A stretch of DNA of 64,000 bases from the NCBI RefSeq assembly GCF_044324785.1, contig NZ_CP172127.1; one strand, written 5' to 3'. How positions within the stretch are numbered: position 1 is the first letter of the stretch; every line of letters begins with the position of its first letter. The position numbers were made by a program, and so were the translations under genes. Source of the DNA: Escherichia coli (GTDB taxonomy: Bacteria > Pseudomonadota > Gammaproteobacteria > Enterobacterales > Enterobacteriaceae). Shown one piece after another: positions 53,909 to 64,000 of this stretch. The notes under the pieces were generated by a model that saw nothing but the letters and a program-made list of their open reading frames with translations, searched no databases and had not been told where the DNA came from.

Positions 53909-54129
53909 CGTCTCACCCTTGCTCGCGAGGTCCCGGTTTAACTTTAGACGCAGTTTTGCGAACCAGGTAGTTTTGCCCGTTTTTTGTGCATCTATAGGGT
54001 GATTTTATTTTTGCCAGGCGATTTTGAGTGATCGTACTCACGAATTCTCATTTTTCTGCAAGAGTTCAAAGAAAGTTAAACGCAGGCAATGTATGTTACG
54101 CGTTTTAAAGGGAAGTGTGGTTTGCGGGT

Positions 54130-55815
54130 ATGTACGATTTTAATCTGGTGTTGCTGCTGCTTCAGCAGATGTGCGTTTTTTTAGTCATTGCGTGGTTAAT
54201 GAGTAAAACGCCATTATTCATACCGTTAATGCAGGTCACGGTTCGTCTGCCGCATAAATTTCTCTGCTACATCGTCTTTTCCATCTTCTGCATCATGGGC
54301 ACCTGGTTTGGGTTGCACATTGACGATTCTATTGCCAATACCCGTGCGATAGGCGCGGTAATGGGCGGCTTGCTCGGCGGTCCGGTCGTCGGTGGGCTGG
54401 TTGGTCTGACCGGCGGGTTACATCGATATTCGATGGGGGGCATGACCGCGCTAAGTTGCATGATCTCGACCATCGTTGAAGGATTGCTCGGCGGCCTGGT
54501 ACACAGCATCCTGATTCGTCGCGGGCGCACTGATAAAGTCTTTAACCCCATTACCGCCGGTGCCGTCACGTTCGTCGCTGAAATGGTGCAAATGTTGATC
54601 ATCCTGGCGATCGCCCGACCTTATGAAGATGCGGTGCGTCTGGTGAGTAATATTGCTGCGCCAATGATGGTCACCAATACCGTCGGCGCGGCGCTGTTTA
54701 TGCGTATATTGCTCGATAAACGCGCGATGTTTGAAAAATACACTTCGGCTTTTTCTGCTACTGCGCTGAAAGTGGCTGCCTCGACGGAAGGCATTTTGCG
54801 CCAGGGGTTTAACGAAGTGAACAGCATGAAAGTGGCACAGGTGCTGTATCAGGAGCTGGATATTGGTGCAGTCGCGATTACCGATCGAGAGAAATTGCTG
54901 GCCTTTACCGGAATTGGTGACGACCACCATTTACCCGGCAAACCGATTTCTTCGACTTATACCTTAAAAGCAATTGAAACCGGTGAAGTGGTCTACGCTG
55001 ATGGCAACGAAGTACCTTATCGTTGCTCTTTGCATCCGCAATGCAAACTGGGGTCGACGCTGGTAATTCCGTTGCGTGGCGAAAATCAGCGGGTGATGGG
55101 CACCATCAAATTGTATGAAGCCAAAAACCGTTTATTCAGTTCAATCAACCGCACGTTGGGTGAGGGGATTGCGCAACTGCTTTCGGCGCAGATCCTCGCC
55201 GGGCAATATGAGCGGCAAAAAGCGATGCTCACCCAGTCAGAGATCAAACTGCTTCACGCTCAGGTGAACCCCCATTTTTTGTTTAATGCGCTTAACACCA
55301 TTAAAGCGGTGATCCGTCGCGACAGCGAACAGGCCAGCCAGCTGGTGCAGTATCTTTCCACTTTTTTCCGCAAAAACTTAAAGCGGCCTTCGGAGTTTGT
55401 TACTCTCGCCGACGAAATTGAACATGTGAACGCTTATCTGCAAATTGAAAAGGCGCGCTTCCAGTCGCGGTTGCAGGTCAACATTGCTATTCCGCAAGAA
55501 TTATCCCAGCAGCAATTGCCCGCGTTTACCCTGCAACCGATAGTGGAAAACGCTATTAAACATGGGACATCACAACTGCTCGATACAGGGCGAGTGGCAA
55601 TCAGCGCCCGACGTGAGGGGCAACATTTGATGCTGGAGATCGAAGACAATGCCGGTTTGTATCAACCGGTAACCAATGCCAGTGGGCTGGGGATGAATCT
55701 GGTGGATAAGCGTTTACGTGAACGGTTTGGCGATGACTATGGGATAAGCGTCGCCTGTGAGCCTGATAGTTACACCCGAATAACGTTACGACTACCATGG
55801 AGGGACGAGGCATGA
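54130..55815 (+). CDS. btsS: LytS-type sensor histidine kinase (pyruvate sensing)
   Basis: 561 aa from ATG at 54130 (GTG at 54115 is an alternative); N-terminal polytopic sensor domain plus His-kinase H-box [15 protein letters not shown]. Confidence 0.88.
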
Positions 55816-56531
55816 TTAAAGTCTTAATTGTCGATGATGAACCGTTAGCACGGGAGAACCTGCGCGTATTTTTGCAGGAGCAGAGCGATATTGAAATCGT
55901 TGGTGAGTGTTCAAACGCCGTGGAAGGGATCGGCGCGGTGCATAAACTGCGCCCGGATGTGCTGTTTCTTGATATCCAGATGCCGCGCATCAGTGGTCTG
56001 GAAATGGTGGGAATGCTCGACCCGGAACATCGTCCGTATATCGTTTTTCTCACCGCGTTTGATGAATACGCCATTAAAGCCTTTGAAGAACATGCCTTTG
56101 ATTATCTGCTGAAGCCAATTGATGAAGCGCGACTGGAGAAAACGCTGGCGCGATTGCGTCTGGAGCGCAGCAAGCAGGATGTTTCGCTGTTACCGGAAAA
56201 TCAACAGGCGCTGAAATTTATCCCTTGTACGGGGCATAGTCGGATTTATTTGCTGCAAATGAAAGATGTAGCATTTGTCAGCAGTCGGATGAGCGGTGTC
56301 TACGTTACCAGTCACGAAGGGAAAGAGGGCTTTACCGAACTGACATTACGTACCCTGGAGAGTCGTACACCACTACTACGCTGCCATCGTCAGTATCTGG
56401 TTAACCTCGCGCATTTACAGGAGATTCGTCTGGAAGATAACGGTCAGGCCGAGTTGATTTTGCGTAATGGCTTAACCGTGCCGGTCAGCCGTCGTTATCT
56501 GAAAAGCTTAAAAGAGGCGATTGGCCTGTAA
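55797..56531 (+). CDS. btsR: LytTR-family response regulator
   Basis: 244 aa; receiver domain [15 protein letters not shown] plus C-terminal LytTR DNA-binding domain; overlaps the btsS stop. Confidence 0.9.
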
Positions 56532-57048
56532 AAGACTGCTAAAATGGCTTTTTGCCTCATCAACACCTGAAGGCCTCATGCTAAGTAACGATATTCTGCG
56601 CAGCGTGCGCTACATTTTGAAAGCCAATAATAATGACCTGGTGCGTATTCTGGCGCTGGGTAATGTCGAAGCCACCGCGGAACAGATCGCCGTCTGGCTA
56701 CGTAAAGAAGACGAAGAGGGTTTTCAGCGTTGTCCGGACATTGTTTTGTCTTCCTTCCTCAATGGCCTAATTTATGAAAAACGCGGCAAGGATGAGTCTG
56801 CTCCGGCACTGGAGCCGGAACGTCGCATTAATAACAACATCGTGCTGAAAAAATTACGCATCGCGTTTTCGCTGAAAACCGATGACATTCTGGCGATCCT
56901 CACCGAACAGCAGTTCCGCGTTTCGATGCCGGAAATTACGGCGATGATGCGTGCACCGGATCATAAAAACTTCCGCGAATGCGGCGATCAATTTTTACGT
57001 TATTTTCTGCGTGGACTGGCAGCGCGCCAGCATGTGAAGAAAAGCTAA
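56521..57048 (+). CDS. yehS: DUF1456-family protein
   Basis: 175 aa. Confidence 0.8.
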
Positions 57049-57057
57049 GACGGGTAT

Positions 57058-57082
57058 GGCGGCCATGCGGAACATGGCCGCC
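57058..57082. terminator. Bidirectional terminator hairpin between convergent yehS and yehR (10-bp stem ggcggccatg/catggccgcc)
   Basis: GC-rich perfect stem with 5-nt loop. Confidence 0.55.
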
Positions 57083-57088
57083 GACAGA

Positions 57089-57562
57089 TTATTTCACTTC
57101 TTTAAAACCAGCGGCTTTCATCACCAGTTCCATTTGCGCCATAGTGATACCTTTTTTGGCATCTTCAGCAGAAACGTTGATTCCTGAAATACCCTGCAGG
57201 GCTTTAAAATCCACTTTTTCCATATCGATAGTCACGTTTTCCTGCGCGTAGGTATCGGTATAGGTTAATTTTTCTTCAACACCCGCGATGTTTTTGTATT
57301 TGGCGCTTAACGGCTCAAGTGTCTTGGCAGCGTCTTCTTTGGTGGTTGCACCAATGGAGGCAAATTGAATTTTGGTTTCAGAAGATTGCTTAAGCACCTT
57401 GTCACCTTTGTAGACATAGGTAATGGCAATTTCAGTACCGTTCAGATTGGCGCTGAATTTTTTCGATTCTTCTTTGTCACCGCAGCCAGCAAGAGAGAAA
57501 ACCAGAACAGATGCAACAACGAGGGAAAACAGCTTATTGAAAGCCTTCATGTAAAACTCCAT
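57089..57562 (-). CDS. yehR: DUF1307 lipoprotein
   Basis: 157 aa; lipobox SLAGC. Confidence 0.85.
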   Translation of the reverse strand: MEFYMKAFNKLFSLVVASVLVFSLAGCGDKEESKKFSANLNGTEIAITYVYKGDKVLKQSSETKIQFASIGATTKEDAAKTLEPLSAKYKNIAGVEEKLTYTDTYAQENVTIDMEKVDFKALQGISGINVSAEDAKKGITMAQMELVMKAAGFKEVK

Positions 57563-57674
57563 TTTATTTAATCAAGGAACTGGTGACTCTCACCAGGGGC
57601 TATATAGGATATGCCTAATACTGTGGCGTGAGCAGTCCGGAACTGGAGTAGAACTCTTAGTAAAAAGCACTATT

Positions 57675-59675
57675 TCATCCTTGTTGCTGAAGCATGGGGA
57701 ATAATTGTTCGCAAAGTAAAACACCGTTATTCATTGCTTCTACCCGTGCCTCGCTTTCTGTATTACGAAATTGTGCCAACACATGTGCCAGCCGATAAAA
57801 ACCCACCGCGGAGAGGTCATTCGCCAGCAACTCTGCCTGACCAATAGCACTCTGTTCCTGATAGCGCCAGCCGTTATGGAGCAGTTGAATAAGTAACGCC
57901 TGGCAGCGCATCAGCAACTGATGAGCGGTAGACGGCACAGGCAAAACGCTGGCAGAAGGTAGCGGTGCCACAGGCGCAGTTTCTGCGTCCAGCGCCCAGG
58001 CGCGAGTTTTTGTCATCATCACCCGTGGTTCCAGTGTCAATTGCCCCTCTACAAAGCTGACAAAGCCAGAAACCAGACTCACGGGGTCGTCTGTTTGTTG
58101 CAAAAGCGCCGCCATGCGTTCAACGGCAAAAGGAGAACAGGCAGATGCCGGAAGGGATAACGTCAGCACATTATCTTCCCCTTCGCCGCTAATGACCTGC
58201 GCATCCAGTGTCTGGCGGCTGCTATCCCAACCAAGCGAAATACACTCCGCTACCGGCAGAATAAATAAGTTATCGACCTGGTTGAGTGGTCGTATGCAGG
58301 CGGGGGGACGCTGGCGTAAATATTCCCGCAAAGCCACAATGCCCGGCTGGCGCAACGGCGCACTCAACATTTGCCAGGCGTCTGGCGACAGTGGAACAAC
58401 ACTACTCAAGCGGTTGCGGGTAGCTAACAGCAGCTCGCCATCGGCACTGCGTTTTGCTGCTTGTGAAACAATTTGCCCACCCGCCAGTGCGCCAGCCTGA
58501 AAACTAAACAGCCGACGCGTCGCTGCCGGTGAGTTTTCCTGTTCGCTTCTCGGCCAACTACGCGAAAGGTGCAAAATACTGCCGGTGTCGGGATCGGTAA
58601 ACCAGATGCGTAAACCATACTGCTCAATATCCTGCCAGCAACGCATACCTAAAGACACCAGCCGCAGATGATCAAGCTTTGCTTCTCCGGCAATGCCAGC
58701 GCCAACGACCGTGCGCCACGGCATGGGAGGAACTTCACCAACACTGTCGCGCCGGGCCATCTCTTGTGCACAATTTAATCGATTGTTTAATGCCGCAAGC
58801 TGACATAAGCATTCTCCGGCATGATAGTGGCTGGCGCGGGCGTGGAAGGCATCAACGCTGGCGCGCAGTTGCCGTAGCGATTCACTCACCCAGCGCCAGT
58901 TGCAGCGTTCCGCCGCTTGCTGCGCGCGGCTGAAAGCAGCCTCGTAATGAATAAGCGGCTGGCTGATGCCGCCAAGCCATAACGCCTGGCTTAATTGCTG
59001 AACATATTGACGACACGCGTCGCCCTCATCGTTGGCAAACGGATCGTCAGATGATGTGACGTGTTCGCTGCGCATCTGCCAGATTAAATGAGTAAATTCC
59101 GCTTGCTGCGCTTTGGCCTGGGCAAAGGCCTGTACTGCCAGTACGACATGTTCGCAAAGTGTGCCGTCAATACAATCACAGCGTGCGAAACGAATGCTGC
59201 TGCGGGAATAAAAACGTACATCGCTCATCGGTAAGCGGGCAGAGGGAATTTCGCCAGGCGTACAGAACAACTCAATGGTGATGCCTTTAGCGACCAGTGT
59301 CTGTGCGCGTTTGCGGGTGGCATCGGGCAGGGTAGCCAGTTCTTCCAGCCAGATTGCCGGATCCCACTCTTCTTCTTTTTCCGTAGGCTGGGTGGTGGCG
59401 CAAAGTCGCTGATAACTTAAAACCAGCATCACGCGATGGCGGCACATGCCGCTGGCCCCGCAGCTGCATTGAGCCTCTTTCAGTGCCTGACCGTTCGCCA
59501 GCTGGGTGCGGACACCGTCACTGAAGGTGGCGATTAAAGCGCCGTTCTCATGGCTGATTTCCGGGACGTTGCCATTTTCCAGTTCTTTAAGGCTGCGCTT
59601 AACAAAACCGGCATTGCTTAACGCCGTCAAAGCTTGTGGTGTCAGTTCTAATAATTCCGGCCGTAGTGAATTCAT
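57675..59675 (-). CDS. yehQ: SWIM zinc-finger protein of the yehLMPQ cluster
   Basis: 666 aa; two CxCx5CxH SWIM motifs (CSCGASGMCRHRV, CDCIDGTLCEHVV); start overlaps the yehP stop (ATGA). Confidence 0.8.
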   Translation of the reverse strand: MNSLRPELLELTPQALTALSNAGFVKRSLKELENGNVPEISHENGALIATFSDGVRTQLANGQALKEAQCSCGASGMCRHRVMLVLSYQRLCATTQPTEKEEEWDPAIWLEELATLPDATRKRAQTLVAKGITIELFCTPGEIPSARLPMSDVRFYSRSSIRFARCDCIDGTLCEHVVLAVQAFAQAKAQQAEFTHLIWQMRSEHVTSSDDPFANDEGDACRQYVQQLSQALWLGGISQPLIHYEAAFSRAQQAAERCNWRWVSESLRQLRASVDAFHARASHYHAGECLCQLAALNNRLNCAQEMARRDSVGEVPPMPWRTVVGAGIAGEAKLDHLRLVSLGMRCWQDIEQYGLRIWFTDPDTGSILHLSRSWPRSEQENSPAATRRLFSFQAGALAGGQIVSQAAKRSADGELLLATRNRLSSVVPLSPDAWQMLSAPLRQPGIVALREYLRQRPPACIRPLNQVDNLFILPVAECISLGWDSSRQTLDAQVISGEGEDNVLTLSLPASACSPFAVERMAALLQQTDDPVSLVSGFVSFVEGQLTLEPRVMMTKTRAWALDAETAPVAPLPSASVLPVPSTAHQLLMRCQALLIQLLHNGWRYQEQSAIGQAELLANDLSAVGFYRLAHVLAQFRNTESEARVEAMNNGVLLCEQLFPMLQQQG

Positions 59676-60808
59676 GACTGAAGATTCTCCGCAAGCCAGG
59701 TCGCCAGTTCGCCCGGCGTCATGGCGGCTATTTGTGCGCCGACATTAACCAGCGCCTGGGCCGTATCGTGGTCATAGCAAGGTGTTGCGGTGCTATCGAG
59801 CGCCGCCAGTCCCAGCACTTTGACGCCGCTCTGGACACACGTTTTCACCTGATGCGTCAGCAATGATGATGAACCCCCTTCATAGAAATCGCTCACGAGG
59901 ATAATGACGCTTTTCGCTGGTTGTTCAATAAGTTGCCGACCATACTCCACGGCACTGGCGATATTGGTCCCGCCGCCCAGTTGTACTTTCATTAATAACT
60001 CTACTGGATCAGCAACGTCTGCCGTGAGATCAACGACGCTGGTGTCAAACGCCACCAGATGGGTACGAATGCCGGGTAACTGCCATAAACAGGCCGCCAT
60101 CACCGCAGAGTGGATCACCGAATCGACCATCGATCCGCTTTGATCAACCAGTAAGACCAGTTGCCATTGTTCGCTTTGGCGTTTAATGCGGCTGTTAAAG
60201 CGGGGGGATTCGATATACAACTTGCCGTGTTGCGGGTGCCAGTGTTGCAGGTTGGCGCGCAGAGTACTTTTGAAATCAAAGTTTCGCGCCAGTGGAATAA
60301 ATGAGCGGCGACGGCGATCGCGGACACCAGAAAAAGCCTGGCGAACTTCCTTTGCCAGTCGCGCCATAATTTCTTCAACAACCTGGCGCACTATCCGGCG
60401 GGCGGCAGCCAGCACTTCGGGATTCATCAGATGTTTGGTGTGCAAAACGGCGCGTAGCAGGCTTTCAGAAGGCTGCATACGTTCCAGCACGTCGAGATTC
60501 GTCACCACATCTTCAATGCCGTAGCGCAGTACGGCATCGCTTTCCAGCCGCTCGATCACCTGTTGCGGAAACAGCGTGTGAATACTGTTGATCCACTCAG
60601 GGGTGGTGAGATTTGAGTCACCTAATCCACCGGAGCGTTCACCACGCTGGAGCCGTTCAGGATCGCGCCCATACAGCCACTCCAGCGCGTGGTCTATCTG
60701 CCGGGCATTGTCATCCAGCCCACAAAGGGTCGTTTCTGCCGCTTCGCCAAGAATTAATCGCCAGCGTTGTAGCTCACGGGTGGTCAGAAGATCGTTCAGT
60801 TCAGACAT
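59672..60808 (-). CDS. yehP: von Willebrand factor A (VWA) domain protein
   Basis: ATG at 60808 gives 378 aa (MSELNDLL...); MIDAS motif DQSGSM; overlaps the yehM stop by 8 nt; the ORF-track frame is an upstream extension. Confidence 0.85.
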   Translation of the reverse strand: MSELNDLLTTRELQRWRLILGEAAETTLCGLDDNARQIDHALEWLYGRDPERLQRGERSGGLGDSNLTTPEWINSIHTLFPQQVIERLESDAVLRYGIEDVVTNLDVLERMQPSESLLRAVLHTKHLMNPEVLAAARRIVRQVVEEIMARLAKEVRQAFSGVRDRRRRSFIPLARNFDFKSTLRANLQHWHPQHGKLYIESPRFNSRIKRQSEQWQLVLLVDQSGSMVDSVIHSAVMAACLWQLPGIRTHLVAFDTSVVDLTADVADPVELLMKVQLGGGTNIASAVEYGRQLIEQPAKSVIILVSDFYEGGSSSLLTHQVKTCVQSGVKVLGLAALDSTATPCYDHDTAQALVNVGAQIAAMTPGELATWLAENLQS

Positions 60809-63080
60809 GGAAAACTCCCCAGTGTTGCAGCGATGCCAGTGCCTGCTGTTCGAGTTGTTGATGATGTGCAATGGCTTGCGGTGGACAATGCAACGGCATT
60901 TGCAGCGCTGAAACGGGAAGCTGTGCGAGCTGGTAATGCTCAAGCACCTGATGCGCCAGCGTCCCGCGTTCCCGTGGTGGTAGCCAGGCCATCGCCGCAC
61001 GTAAATCGGGCAGGGCGTTAATAAAATCGTCGTCACTCAGTTGATTTAAATGACTACTGAAACCGGCGATAAATGCCGGCTGACAGGCCAGTTGATGGCG
61101 GGCCAGCGCCAGCAAACCGTGCAGTGCCTCGCCGGATTGTGCCGGGGATAATTGCGCCAGCATCGTCAGCGCCGCTTCGGCACTGGCGTTGGGATGTTCC
61201 AGACGCATCAGTGCGCCAAGAGCCGCGCCGCGATCCAGCGCCGGGGCATGAATCGCCTGACTGCGGCGCTCCAGTAAGGCTACCGCCGCAGAAAGAGAAA
61301 CGCCGGGTAAATTAACGCCGCTATGTAGATCGCGCAGGATATGGCAAAGCGCCTGCCAGCTATGCAGGTGAGCGTGAAACTCCTTTTCCTCCGGTCTGCC
61401 GTTGGATTCACACAGCCAGAGTGTGCGATCGATAGCCGCGCATAACGTCGTCTGTAATATCTGCGCGCCTTGCATACCGCTAATTTCATCCAGCCGCCAT
61501 AAGGCGTATAGCACTTCCAGCGCCTGGCCCATTTCGGCAAACTGATTTTCCTGGGCGATTAATAATGTAAGTTGCTCCAGTAATTGTTGACTGAAGGACG
61601 CCAGACCCGCTAACGCCGCCTGGCTAAGACATGTGGTGATACTGCCGATTCCACCCGCGTCCAGCATATCGGCTTCTAATTTATTGCGTGCGGCTTCCTG
61701 GAGTGTGGCACCAAAGCAGGCGGCCTCAATTAATGCCGCATGTTGGCTAAGCGGGCGGGTTAATTTCCAGCGTTCTTCACCGTTGCCTGCAAGTGTCAGT
61801 GTGCTTCCCTGCTGGCGTACAATCCCTGGGATCTCCAGTATTGCCAGCCGATGTAACACCTGACTTTGCGCTAGTCTATTGGGGTTAAAGCGATTTAAGG
61901 TAAGCTCCGCCGGAAGAGAGATTGCGGTACGTTCCAGTTCGCAGGTGACATCTTTTGGCAGAGGCGGTTGTGGCGTAGAAGGGGCAAGTTTACCGAATCC
62001 GTCACCCGCTAATGTGTCTATCAACGTTAGCAGAATCGGATCGGTATCGGGATGAATAACGCCGCGATAGCTCCACGGCAACGGCGCGTTCAAGGCTTCT
62101 TTAATCAGCGAGCCTGCTATGGCATCCAGCCAGTCAGTGCGTAACGGTAGTATATGACCGCGCAACTGTGCCAGCGCCATCGCATGCAGATGAGCGGCAG
62201 CCATATCCGCTGTTGAAGCAGGCAAGTGGTGCTGGCGCAAACGGGTAAGAACCGTTTTCAGCAGTTGTTCACCTGCCTGCTGCAAGCCCCACCGCCAGCA
62301 CCAGTTTTGCCAGACCGGGGCAGGCATTCCTGAAAGGTATCCTGCCAGCACATCAAGGCGCTTTTCACTGTATGGCGTGAGATAGCAACCTGTAACGGCA
62401 TCATCCAGTGAGAGCAATTCTGGCGTGTTAATTTCTTGCGGGCATTCGCGCCACATTTTTGCCAGTGCCGGAGCGTGCCAGCCTCCGCAGACGACTAATA
62501 CGTCGCCATTATTTTGCTGCATCGCCCATCCAATCCAGCGGGCCATAAAGGCTTCGCGCTGACGATTGAGTGCATCGCCGGAGGCGTCGCCCCGCAGTTG
62601 TACAAAATAGTGCGCCAGTGCAGAGGGTAATATAGTTTGCTGGCTTTCATCTTCGAACAAGTGATCCCACAGGGTGTCGCTGTTATCCATGCGGGTGGCA
62701 CGCAGCAGCAAGGTCTGGCTTTCCTCTTGCGTATCAGGCGAATTGTCCTCTTCTTCACTCTGTGCCCAGCAAGGCAAATCGATGAAGTAAGTTTGTGCCT
62801 GAATACGACGTGCGGCTTGTAGCGCCTGCCACTCCGGCGAAAATTCAGCAAATGGCGTCCAGGCACCACGCCCGGGGGCCGCACCGTCCTGATACTGGCA
62901 ATAACTGTAAATAGCTACCGGAAGCTGGTGGGCTAACAACAGTTCGTCTACCCGGTCATTAAAATCAGCCGGGCCTTCAATCAACACGTATCGTGGCCGC
63001 TGGCTTTCGATTAACGATTTCACCAGCCGGGCGCAGGCCGGACTATGATGCCGGATGCCGACAATTAACGGCTCGCTCAT
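60801..63080 (-). CDS. yehM: Large uncharacterised protein of the yehLMPQ cluster
   Basis: ATG at 63080 gives 759 aa (MSEPLIVGIRHHSPA...); the ORF-track 806-aa frame is an in-frame upstream extension. Confidence 0.8.
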   Translation of the reverse strand: MSEPLIVGIRHHSPACARLVKSLIESQRPRYVLIEGPADFNDRVDELLLAHQLPVAIYSYCQYQDGAAPGRGAWTPFAEFSPEWQALQAARRIQAQTYFIDLPCWAQSEEEDNSPDTQEESQTLLLRATRMDNSDTLWDHLFEDESQQTILPSALAHYFVQLRGDASGDALNRQREAFMARWIGWAMQQNNGDVLVVCGGWHAPALAKMWRECPQEINTPELLSLDDAVTGCYLTPYSEKRLDVLAGYLSGMPAPVWQNWCWRWGLQQAGEQLLKTVLTRLRQHHLPASTADMAAAHLHAMALAQLRGHILPLRTDWLDAIAGSLIKEALNAPLPWSYRGVIHPDTDPILLTLIDTLAGDGFGKLAPSTPQPPLPKDVTCELERTAISLPAELTLNRFNPNRLAQSQVLHRLAILEIPGIVRQQGSTLTLAGNGEERWKLTRPLSQHAALIEAACFGATLQEAARNKLEADMLDAGGIGSITTCLSQAALAGLASFSQQLLEQLTLLIAQENQFAEMGQALEVLYALWRLDEISGMQGAQILQTTLCAAIDRTLWLCESNGRPEEKEFHAHLHSWQALCHILRDLHSGVNLPGVSLSAAVALLERRSQAIHAPALDRGAALGALMRLEHPNASAEAALTMLAQLSPAQSGEALHGLLALARHQLACQPAFIAGFSSHLNQLSDDDFINALPDLRAAMAWLPPRERGTLAHQVLEHYQLAQLPVSALQMPLHCPPQAIAHHQQLEQQALASLQHWGVFHV

Positions 63081-63090
63081 GCATCTTTCC

Positions 63091-64000
63091 TCACGGCAGG
63101 CGGTGGCGAGCTTGATAATAAGCCTGCCAGTGAGCTTCTTTATGTGTAGCGACACGTTGTTCGAAGTAACGGCGCAGACGTGCGCGATCTTCTTCGTTAT
63201 CTTTGACGATGGTTCCGGCAATACAGTCCACCAGGTCGGCTGGCTCCCCCGCGCGATTCGCTAAAAACCAGGCGCGGACGCCCACAGCGTGGGCCACGTT
63301 CACGGCTTCAGCGGTGGACATAATCGCTGTCAGTGTATCCATTGACGTTTTCTTTTCGCCGTTGGCACGCAGATCGCGGAAGGTGCGTACCAGTAACTCC
63401 AGTACCGCGTCAGGCACTTTATGCGGAATACCGCTATGGGCCAACAAACGCGCCGAAGCACTGGCGACCAGTTCCAGCTCCTGGGCGAAATCCATAATCG
63501 GAAAGACAGTTTCAAAATCGAAGCGACGCTTTAGCGCAGCACTCATTTCATTGACGCCGCGATCGCGGGTATTGGCAGTGGCAATAATATTAAAGCCTTC
63601 CCGCGCATAGAGCTGACTGGCTTCACCAGTGAGTTCCGGCACCGTCATTACCCTGTCAGAAAGCATACCTAACAGACAGTCTTGTACTTCCAGCGGTGTA
63701 CGCGTTATCTCTTCAAAACGGACAATTTTGCCGTCGCGCATTCCCTGGTAAAGCGGGGCAGGGACCAGCGCTTCCGTTGACGGACCATGGTTGATAAGCA
63801 GGGCGTAGTTCCAGCCATACTTGATTTGATCTTCGGTGGTAGATGCGCCGCCCTGGATGGTTAACCCGGCATCGCCGCTAATAGCGGTTGCCAGTAATTC
63901 AGACAGGAGAGATTTTGCGGTGCCAGGTTCCCCCACCAACATCAAACCGCGCCCGGTAGCGAGAGTGACTAACATGCGTTCGACAGCGGAGGGACTGATC
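63091..64000 (-). CDS. yehL: MoxR-type AAA+ ATPase, N-terminus truncated by window end
   Basis: Walker A GEPGTAKS; frame stays open to the window edge; stop at 63091-63093. Confidence 0.85.
   Translation of the reverse strand, partial: ISPSAVERMLVTLATGRGLMLVGEPGTAKSLLSELLATAISGDAGLTIQGGASTTEDQIKYGWNYALLINHGPSTEALVPAPLYQGMRDGKIVRFEEITRTPLEVQDCLLGMLSDRVMTVPELTGEASQLYAREGFNIIATANTRDRGVNEMSAALKRRFDFETVFPIMDFAQELELVASASARLLAHSGIPHKVPDAVLELLVRTFRDLRANGEKKTSMDTLTAIMSTAEAVNVAHAVGVRAWFLANRAGEPADLVDCIAGTIVKDNEEDRARLRRYFEQRVATHKEAHWQAYYQARHRLP

Follow-up and report, generated by a model that had tools for sequence, protein, structure and literature searches.

The yehLMPQ operon of Escherichia coli encodes four of the five components of a conserved MoxR-VWA system with a previously undescribed set of partners

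Positions 57675 to 64000 of a 64,000 nt stretch of Escherichia coli DNA (RefSeq assembly GCF_044324785.1, contig NZ_CP172127.1; the whole stretch is referred to here as the window) are filled by four open reading frames (ORFs) on the minus strand, yehL, yehM, yehP and yehQ, the first of which is cut by the window edge. Our analysis identifies yehLMPQ as part of a MoxR-VWA system whose set of partners has not been described before. The four genes encode four of the five components of a conserved unit, the fifth being one to three DUF4132 proteins, usually with a WGR domain, and across two phyla, Proteobacteria and Actinobacteria, the five genes run in the same direction, lie close together and are inherited as a set. 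An earlier sequence-only reading of the same DNA had proposed a translationally coupled module of four genes; the ORFs and their coupling are as it described, and the unit proves to be larger, with the DUF4132 genes yehI and molR lying just past the window.

The yehLMPQ block is found in 5362 of 5426 complete E. coli genomes (98.8 %), with at least 80 % of the query covered in 5202 of them, yet the literature that we searched by gene name, DUF number and domain combination assigns it no function, as the sequence-only reading had supposed. The papers found by gene name cover H-NS silencing, a frameshift in yehP (with a swarming citation) and deletions; no paper in that literature mentions DUF5682, and the few papers on DUF4132 give no function. 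Our results recast four genes of this kind as a defined five-part machine with specific testable residues and activities. We hold the five-part architecture with far greater confidence than the mechanism proposed below, and any particular biological role with far less.

A unit of five genes in two phyla

One genome per species was scanned with a YehM alignment, and 80 loci were kept, drawn from the gamma-, beta- and delta-proteobacteria and from many actinobacterial genomes. Relatives of YehM are encoded in the genomes of at least 560 species and form approximately 2260 clusters at 50 % identity, so that any function established in E. coli would extend to thousands of genes that at present bear the labels DUF5682, DUF4132 or ‘SWIM zinc finger family protein’. 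Synteny was counted at 82 loci by single-round phmmer searches of six-frame ORFs; counts from iterated hidden Markov models (for YehK and, in part, YehQ and YehP) were left unused because the profiles were polluted by off-frame ORFs of GC-rich genomes. YehL had a match at all 82 loci, YehP at 80, YehQ at 78 and DUF4132 at 76, in a near-invariant order and spacing: DUF4132 (one to three copies), AAA_5, DUF5682, VWA, SWIM. The exception to this order was found at two Burkholderia loci, where a DUF4132 gene follows the SWIM gene. The conservation of gene neighbourhood, proposed as a check in the sequence-only reading, is thereby borne out, and among the flanking genes of the 82 loci no family (yehR included) was common across genera beyond the module itself.

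The large proteins neighbouring the module matched DUF4132 in 40 of 40 cases and had an N-terminal WGR domain in 34 (best WGR match, 8.8e-20). A profile of this domain matched Protein Data Bank (PDB) entry 2ra8 at 9e-22 and the WGR domain of PARP3 at 2e-3, which points to a WGR domain of PARP type in these DUF4132 proteins. Upstream of yehL in E. coli strains N3 and AR_0011 lie the small gene yehK, then yehI (DUF4132, 1210 aa) and a second DUF4132 gene at the molR locus. WGR is missing from E. coli YehI, and the N-terminus of the MolR-like paralogue fits the WGR consensus. At the locus of a Variovorax YehM homologue, the co-directional genes encode a WGR-DUF4132 protein, a small ORF product, and AAA_5, DUF5682, VWA_CoxE and 751 aa proteins; five further contexts labelled with Pfam domains showed the same cluster among unrelated housekeeping genes. 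On a contig of GCA_022841245.1 (locus L086), DUF5682 and VWA_CoxE are fused as one protein of 1180 aa.

Several variants of the cluster were observed. Locus L086 (2227–21543) holds two paralogous systems in tandem, the fusion belonging to the first and the second being preceded by a HEAT_2 protein instead of a DUF4132 protein. In Salinispora pacifica (L077, 2–3966), a more divergent pair of AAA_5 and DUF5682 genes lies approximately 5 kb upstream of a canonical five-gene cluster. At locus L090 (5818–12939), a distant DUF5682 protein (979 aa, 33 % identity) has as neighbours an AAA_5 gene in divergent orientation and genes for an FHA-domain and a patatin-like protein; this arrangement, which is without the usual partners, may be a different variant of the system. 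YehK was considered as a sixth member and rejected: E. coli YehK (135 aa in N3, L001) and the 144 aa protein of Variovorax did not match each other, and each was found only in close relatives.

Motor, adaptor and large partner proteins

Mean identity to the window proteins falls across the operon, from 69 % for YehL (77 orthologues) and 62 % for YehP (75 orthologues) to 42 % for YehM and 30 % for YehQ, over approximately 75–80 orthologous loci. YehL and YehP are near-frozen, and YehQ and the multiplied DUF4132 proteins are variable, as would be expected if an engine that stays fixed were served by recognition parts that can change.

YehL is a MoxR/AAA_5 ATPase in which the Walker A and other conserved motifs are intact. 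It matches Pfam AAA_5 at 2.6e-34, which places it in the same family as CobS, NorQ and CbbQ, and has a conserved acidic pair at the expected position of Walker B. Conservation reaches at least 97 % of the 77 orthologues for seven of the eight residues of the Walker A motif GEPGTAKS (all except G86) and for F155-E156-E157, N203 and R218-R219. Matches to the NCBIfam models for GvpN, the MadB ATPase and McrB were weak. The full-length protein has 362 aa in the near-identical strain N3 (L001), the gene extending approximately 180 nt past the end of the window. Its VWA partner is encoded two genes downstream in the same operon, by yehP.

YehP is a CoxE-type VWA protein with a complete metal-ion-dependent adhesion site (MIDAS), the VWA domain following an N-terminal helical region. 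The Pfam VWA_CoxE match (1.8e-71) spans residues 151–372 and all 222 positions of the model (1–222), and there is a weak match to an NCBIfam model for a putative cobaltochelatase. D222, S224, S226, T281 and D307 are each kept in 97 % or more of the orthologues, and a search of PDB sequences returned no solved relative of YehP. The family assignments that had been made for YehL and YehP from GEPGTAKS and the MIDAS motif DQSGSM were therefore sound. The solved sequences closest to YehL are the AAA domains of midasin/Rea1 (7e-10), and with an AAA_5 ring and a MIDAS domain YehL and YehP together resemble a split, minimal midasin. Midasin, which acts on pre-60S particles, is a single polypeptide of approximately 4,700–4,900 residues with six AAA modules, whereas the yeh proteins are split between separate genes, for which no ribosomal link was found.

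The window also contains an exact match to the 16 nt cassette at which +1 ribosomal frameshifting of yehP is experimentally supported, yielding a product of 303 aa (PMC2790909); a swarming phenotype of a yehP knockout is mentioned by way of a citation within the same paper. We rejected the cassette as a family feature: among 87 loci it is confined to two Escherichia loci, and is therefore no feature of the wider family.

YehM had been described in the sequence-only reading as a protein with no recognisable motif, a description now superseded by a DUF5682 match (Pfam, 3.4e-97) and by a predicted fold of TIKI/TraB type with invariant residues of catalytic type. The predicted model comprises an N-terminal domain resembling TIKI, TraB, ChaN and EreA proteins, a middle region and a C-terminal alpha-solenoid. 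The N-terminal domain has the alpha/beta fold of the TIKI superfamily with a core of parallel beta-sheet, and the best structural matches of the model were a TraB-family protein (8bqs_DQ; row 1 of the match list, score 10.9), ChaN (2g5g; row 2, 9.8), HopBA1 (5t09; row 3, 9.8) and EreA-like proteins of Bacillus (2rad, row 14, 8.4; 2qgm, row 52, 7.3). The solenoid resembles the C-terminal domain of TAF6, symplekin and importins.

Two GxxH-like motifs, G8-x-R-H11-H12 and G199-G200-x-H202, lie within the first 260 residues of YehM, and H11, E35, H51, E83, D101, R163, R175, E176 and H202 are invariant in 79–80 of 80 orthologues. These residues appear to follow the same order as the motifs of the TraB family, GTAHxS, VxVE, ERD and GxGH. 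They also supply a candidate set of two histidines, two glutamates and a basic residue (H11/H12, E35, E83/E176, H202 and R175), whose equivalence is judged by motif position only. The active members of the TIKI superfamily, which takes in the structural matches of YehM or their close family members, have a 2His/2Glu site and a basic residue (PMC6254334). Taken with the predicted model, these data suggest that YehM carries a hydrolase domain of TIKI/TraB/EreA type on a HEAT-like scaffold, and it would differ from the other members of the TIKI/TraB/PrgY/GumN/ChaN/erythromycin-esterase superfamily (including RRSP, HopBA1 and PMT) in its fused solenoid of approximately 500 residues and in its MoxR-VWA operon setting.

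The predicted model of YehQ (pLDDT, the per-residue confidence score of the prediction, 92.0) comprises N-terminal helices, two SWIM fingers, a four-helix bundle, a tandem OB-like beta region and C-terminal helices. Both of the CxCx5CxH fingers noted from the sequence are present, and they differ in conservation. The first, which fits the CxCxnCxH pattern, is near-invariant among its family, with zinc ligands kept in 72–73 of 74 orthologues; the second retains them in only 37–38 of 74 and is without them in half of the family, although D167 is invariant. Residues ~325–562 align with the tandem OB proteins RPA70-AB (DBD-A/B), POT1, CST and HIN, with borderline scores for a predicted model, and YehQ thus appears to combine SWIM fingers with a tandem OB region of RPA70-AB/POT1 type. 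The homology searches that had been called for with YehM and YehQ produced structural relatives for both, of the TIKI type for the former and of the tandem OB type, at borderline scores, for the latter; sequence searches of the PDB gave no match to either protein, and SWIM fingers, an OB region and a four-helix bundle in one protein are without a solved counterpart. Within Escherichia, YehQ lengths range from approximately 605 to 709 aa, the common forms having 623–624, 666 and 671–672 aa. A mention of YehQ in a crosslinking paper was discarded as a match to a decoy database.

The yeh module resembles MoxR-VWA systems in its way of working, and its two core proteins belong to the families concerned. 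It shares with CoxD/CoxE, NorQ/NorD, CbbQ/CbbO, CobS/CobT and RavA/ViaA an AAA_5/MoxR gene near a VWA gene with a full MIDAS, and the chemistry expected to be common to yeh and the CoxD/CoxE-type pairs is peptide capture by the VWA domain with ATP-driven remodelling (PMC7159879). The CoxD/CoxE-type pairs are without the three extra large subunits of the yeh module (TIKI-like, SWIM/OB and WGR/DUF4132), and the module is set apart from the CoxD/E, NorQ/D, CbbQ/O, chelatase, VMAP/iSTAND and PADLOC families.

A proposed mechanism and the roles it might serve

According to Kaur, Burroughs, Iyer and Aravind (2020; PMC7159879), what MoxR-vWA systems have in common is that the vWA domain captures a substrate peptide, and our proposed mechanism is modelled on this. 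The WGR-DUF4132 and SWIM-OB subunits would sense a nucleic-acid or nucleoprotein cue, and the MIDAS of YehP would hold an acidic residue of a protein target or partner subunit. The ATP-driven ring of YehL would remodel the captured complex, and this remodelling would license or feed the YehM hydrolase, leading to the cutting of a peptide or ester bond. We tentatively suggest, at somewhat less than an even chance, that a MoxR-VWA motor and adaptor may in this way couple nucleic-acid recognition to a TIKI-type hydrolase in a cytoplasmic machine of five components. The predicted folds of YehQ and the WGR-DUF4132 proteins are of nucleic-acid-binding type, consistent with a part as recognition subunits. 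Surveillance, whether of invading DNA in a conflict or of abnormal DNA-protein structures, is more likely than the maturation of a single metalloenzyme.

Several observations weigh against a nucleic-acid-sensing hydrolase machine. All of our functional statements rest on sequence and predicted structure, and the assignment of YehM to the TIKI superfamily is at the level of the predicted fold only. A sequence-level proof that YehM is a relative of TraB was attempted and failed: a Pfam scan of YehM at E<=10 gave no TraB match (e.g. TraB_PrgY_gumN), and alignment with hhalign of a profile of the YehM N-terminal domain to E. coli YbaP fell short of significance (E 0.26 across 14 columns), the YbaP side being shallow because the YbaP homologues obtained were too alike for a deeper profile. 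Some proteins with the TIKI fold are also non-enzymatic, ChaN binding haem and PMT being without the motif (PMC6254334). The presence of a SWIM or WGR domain is no proof of DNA binding. The genomic distribution of the module and the search for SOS control, described below with the roles on which they bear most directly, count in the same direction.

The most probable of the rival explanations is that of an anti-phage or anti-plasmid conflict system, one more class of MoxR-vWA ‘ternary’ system, which we regard as possible but doubtful. WGR-DUF4132 and SWIM-OB proteins would be the sensors of foreign DNA or of replication intermediates, the MoxR-VWA pair would set an activation threshold, and YehM would be a TIKI-type protease effector acting by abortive infection through cleavage of a protein of the host or the phage. 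The MoxR-vWA ternary conflict systems of Kaur et al. offer a precedent, in that they act as switches with effector-vWA fusions and have, like yeh, a MoxR-vWA core with large extra components and a CoxE-type vWA N-terminal region (PMC7159879); the enzymatic domain fused to a VWA domain at L086 and the variable, duplicated accessory proteins are the yeh parallels. A frozen engine with fast-evolving, duplicated parts of recognition type would suit a conflict, and toxins (RRSP and HopBA1) are found among the TIKI-fold relatives of YehM. The differences from the ternary systems are nonetheless considerable: the third components of yeh are DUF5682, SWIM-OB and WGR-DUF4132 proteins rather than VMAP or iSTAND, the bpMoxR model matched YehL only weakly (E 0.0024), and SWIM, WGR, TraB and Yeh proteins go unmentioned in PMC7159879.

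The history of the block in E. coli bears on the same role. GC is 0.52–0.58 over yehQ–yehL (57500–64000) and 0.47–0.51 in the btsSR-yehS-yehR flank (54000–57500), and identity to most E. coli is approximately 95.7 % in the yeh block vs approximately 98.4 % in the adjoining btsSR-yehS stretch. Loss of hns/stpA relieves the repression of both yehL and yehM, and H-NS occupies the intergenic region upstream (PMC3686432). Homologues within the Enterobacterales are patchy (Klebsiella, Erwinia, Serratia fonticola, Intestinirhabdus and Thorsellia), and yehM and yehL are deleted in lineages 2 and 3 of Shigella sonnei. The block looks like an old import in E. coli, and the earlier placement of the genes in the core genome holds for their near-universal presence in the species but sits less well with this composition, silencing and distribution. 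The synonymous rate (dS) reaches 0.20 in yehQ, and 99 % identity over the block is reached by 2 of 5364 matching records.

Against a conflict role, PADLOC-DB v2 gave no family for YehL, YehM, YehP, YehQ, YehI, YehK or the Variovorax homologues, and thus no match among the six E. coli proteins. None of eight contexts was a setting like a defence island, the neighbours in the contexts examined being housekeeping genes. Presence at one fixed site in almost every E. coli genome is unlike most defence systems, the MoxR-vWA ternary systems included. Plasmid carriage was limited to 38 of 72,556 records, among them very large replicons and chromosome-size records, and a phage collection gave one weak match only. 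The ratio of non-synonymous to synonymous rates (dN/dS), computed against AR_0011 (L083) as a typical E. coli strain, was 0.010 for yehL, 0.073 for yehP, 0.118 for yehM and 0.115 for yehQ, the whole-gene values of 0.07–0.12 being without sign of positive selection. The conflict role, one of those named in the sequence-only reading, is kept as a rival. A bolder proposal we consider rather unlikely: that yehLMPQ with yehI/molR is the founding example of an undescribed, nucleic-acid-sensing class of MoxR-VWA immune or surveillance systems, in which foreign or aberrant DNA would be detected by the WGR-DUF4132 and SWIM-OB subunits and the response carried out by an ATP-gated, TIKI-type YehM protease, the whole being H-NS-silenced in almost every E. 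coli and found in hundreds of species of Proteobacteria and Actinobacteria. Were an immune role true, it would bring a new MoxR-VWA effector logic to bacterial immunity.

DNA maintenance is an unlikely alternative, in which the WGR, SWIM and OB modules would bring the machine to DNA ends, gaps or ssDNA, and its AAA+ motor and TIKI-type hydrolase would strip or degrade proteins stuck on DNA (such as DNA-protein crosslinks) by analogy with SPRTN/Wss1 acting together with Cdc48/p97; such processing of crosslinks or nucleoprotein, if it is the role, would suggest that bacteria have a counterpart to SPRTN/p97. The WGR domain is the DNA-break-binding module of PARP, and the profile match to the WGR of PARP3 and the likeness of the YehQ OB region to RPA70-AB, POT1 and CST are in keeping with this. 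One paper places Deinococcus genes for a DUF4132 protein (DRA0166) and a WGR protein (DR2173) in the DdrO radiation/desiccation regulon and cites molR as a member of the LexA regulon. The cluster is also chromosomal and vertically stable in Escherichia. However, the operon is reported to be H-NS-silenced rather than damage-induced, no DNA-repair gene is conserved near the module and the patchy distribution is unusual for core repair; molR is a pseudogene in some E. coli, and yehL and yehM are lost from some Shigella without a reported consequence.

In AR_0011 (L084, 3922–3937), the site CTGG-N8-ACAG, one mismatch from the LexA box CTGT-N8-ACAG, is found 10 nt ahead of the start codon (ATG) of the molR-like gene, which favours DNA maintenance; the E. 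coli metG-molR region contains no exact LexA box. Conserved SOS control was rejected, the sequences upstream of the module having yielded no LexA box at 25 proteobacterial and 14 actinobacterial loci. In AR_0011 the molR-like WGR-DUF4132 gene contains an internal stop and carries a pseudogene annotation.

A chaperone for the insertion of a metal centre or cofactor, of the CoxD/CoxE, NorQ/NorD, CbbQ/CbbO or CobS/CobT type and with YehM as the metal- or cofactor-binding subunit, is quite improbable. This role was one of the options raised in the sequence-only reading, and it would account for the end-to-end VWA_CoxE match and the weak cobaltochelatase match of YehP, for the AAA_5 membership of YehL with its weak matches to GvpN, the MadB ATPase and McrB, and for the historical name of MolR, ‘molybdate metabolism regulator’. 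ChaN, a fold relative of YehM, binds haem, and the invariant His, Cys, Glu and Asp residues of YehM could bind metal. Systems of the CoxD/E, NorQ/D, CbbQ/O and CobS/T type adjoin their client genes in cox, nor, cbb and cob clusters, whereas none of the 82 yeh loci has a conserved client metalloenzyme, cofactor-pathway gene or large substrate subunit (CODH, NOR, Rubisco or CobN/BchH) beside the module. Pfam detected no CobN/BchH-like subunit in YehM, YehQ or YehI, and the WGR, SWIM and OB partners are without a counterpart in chaperone-type systems. The tie between molR and molybdate is unsupported, the molybdate-metabolism genes having been unchanged alongside the Deinococcus relatives (one paper). 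Insertion of a metal or complex is weakened because no client gene is conserved nearby and the partners have folds of nucleic-acid-binding type.

Least likely of all, and very improbable in our view, is that the operon is a decaying, H-NS-silenced remnant of a horizontally acquired cluster, functionless today in E. coli: silencing, the internal stop of molR in AR_0011, the numerous truncated YehM and YehQ protein clusters in E. coli assemblies, the S. sonnei deletions and a resistance transposon inside the neighbouring DUF4132 region in an ST131 sublineage would fit such decay, but all four genes are undamaged in the window and largely covered in most E. coli genomes, the low dN/dS (0.01–0.12) points to purifying selection rather than decay, the residues of catalytic type are all kept, and a remnant would say nothing on the family outside E. 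coli, whose members in two phyla are intact. The truncated YehM clusters include large ones of 508 aa (613 members) and 424 aa (1108 members), and represent either true truncation or an artefact of contig ends.

Gene layout and sequence features of the window

The gene junctions were read directly from the sequence. Between the yehL TGA and the yehM ATG lie 10 nt, the overlap of yehM with yehP is 8 nt long, and an ATGA is common to the end of yehP and the start of yehQ, so that the coupling described from the sequence stands. A promoter scan of the yehLMPQ block found no sigma-70-like site on the coding (minus) strand, and a terminator scan found no terminator-like site in the yehQ–yehR interval. 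The coordinates of the genes and of the features discussed above are collected in Table 1.

Table 1. Genes and sequence features of the yehLMPQ region, in window coordinates
Feature	Coordinates	Strand	Description
yehL	63999..63091	minus	3' 303 codons, 302 of 362 residues inside the window; translation
Walker A of YehL	63910..63933	minus	GEPGTAKS; residues 83-90 of the full protein
yehM	63080..60801	minus	759 aa; DUF5682
YehM residues 1-260	62301..63080	minus	predicted TIKI-superfamily hydrolase domain, two GxxH-type motifs
YehM residues ~446-759	60804..61745	minus	predicted HEAT/ARM-like alpha-solenoid
yehP	60808..59672	minus	378 aa; CoxE-type VWA
MIDAS DxSxS of YehP	60131..60145	minus	D222-Q-S-G-S226; DQSGSM motif
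+1 ribosomal frameshift cassette in yehP	59935..59950	minus	GTGGAGTATGGTCGGC; 16 nt, exact match in the window
yehQ	59675..57675	minus	666 aa; SWIM protein
SWIM finger 1 of YehQ	59412..59510	minus	residues 56-88; C70, C72, C78, H80; Pfam E 1e-3
SWIM finger 2 of YehQ	59127..59198	minus	residues 160-183; C166, C168, C174, H176; Pfam E 0.1
Tandem OB-fold-like region of YehQ	57990..58703	minus	residues ~325-562, beta-rich (predicted)
yehR	57089..57562	minus	DUF1307 lipoprotein; 112 nt downstream of yehQ; outside the conserved module

The interval between yehK and yehL differs between strains. In N3 (L001, 12506–13652) it is approximately 1.15 kb long and contains two similar repeats approximately 600 nt apart, the ORF translations of which (L001, 12741–12953 and 13349–13561) are near-identical. 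In AR_0011 (L083), the interval is only approximately 300 nt, and yehK is annotated with 105 aa vs 135 aa.

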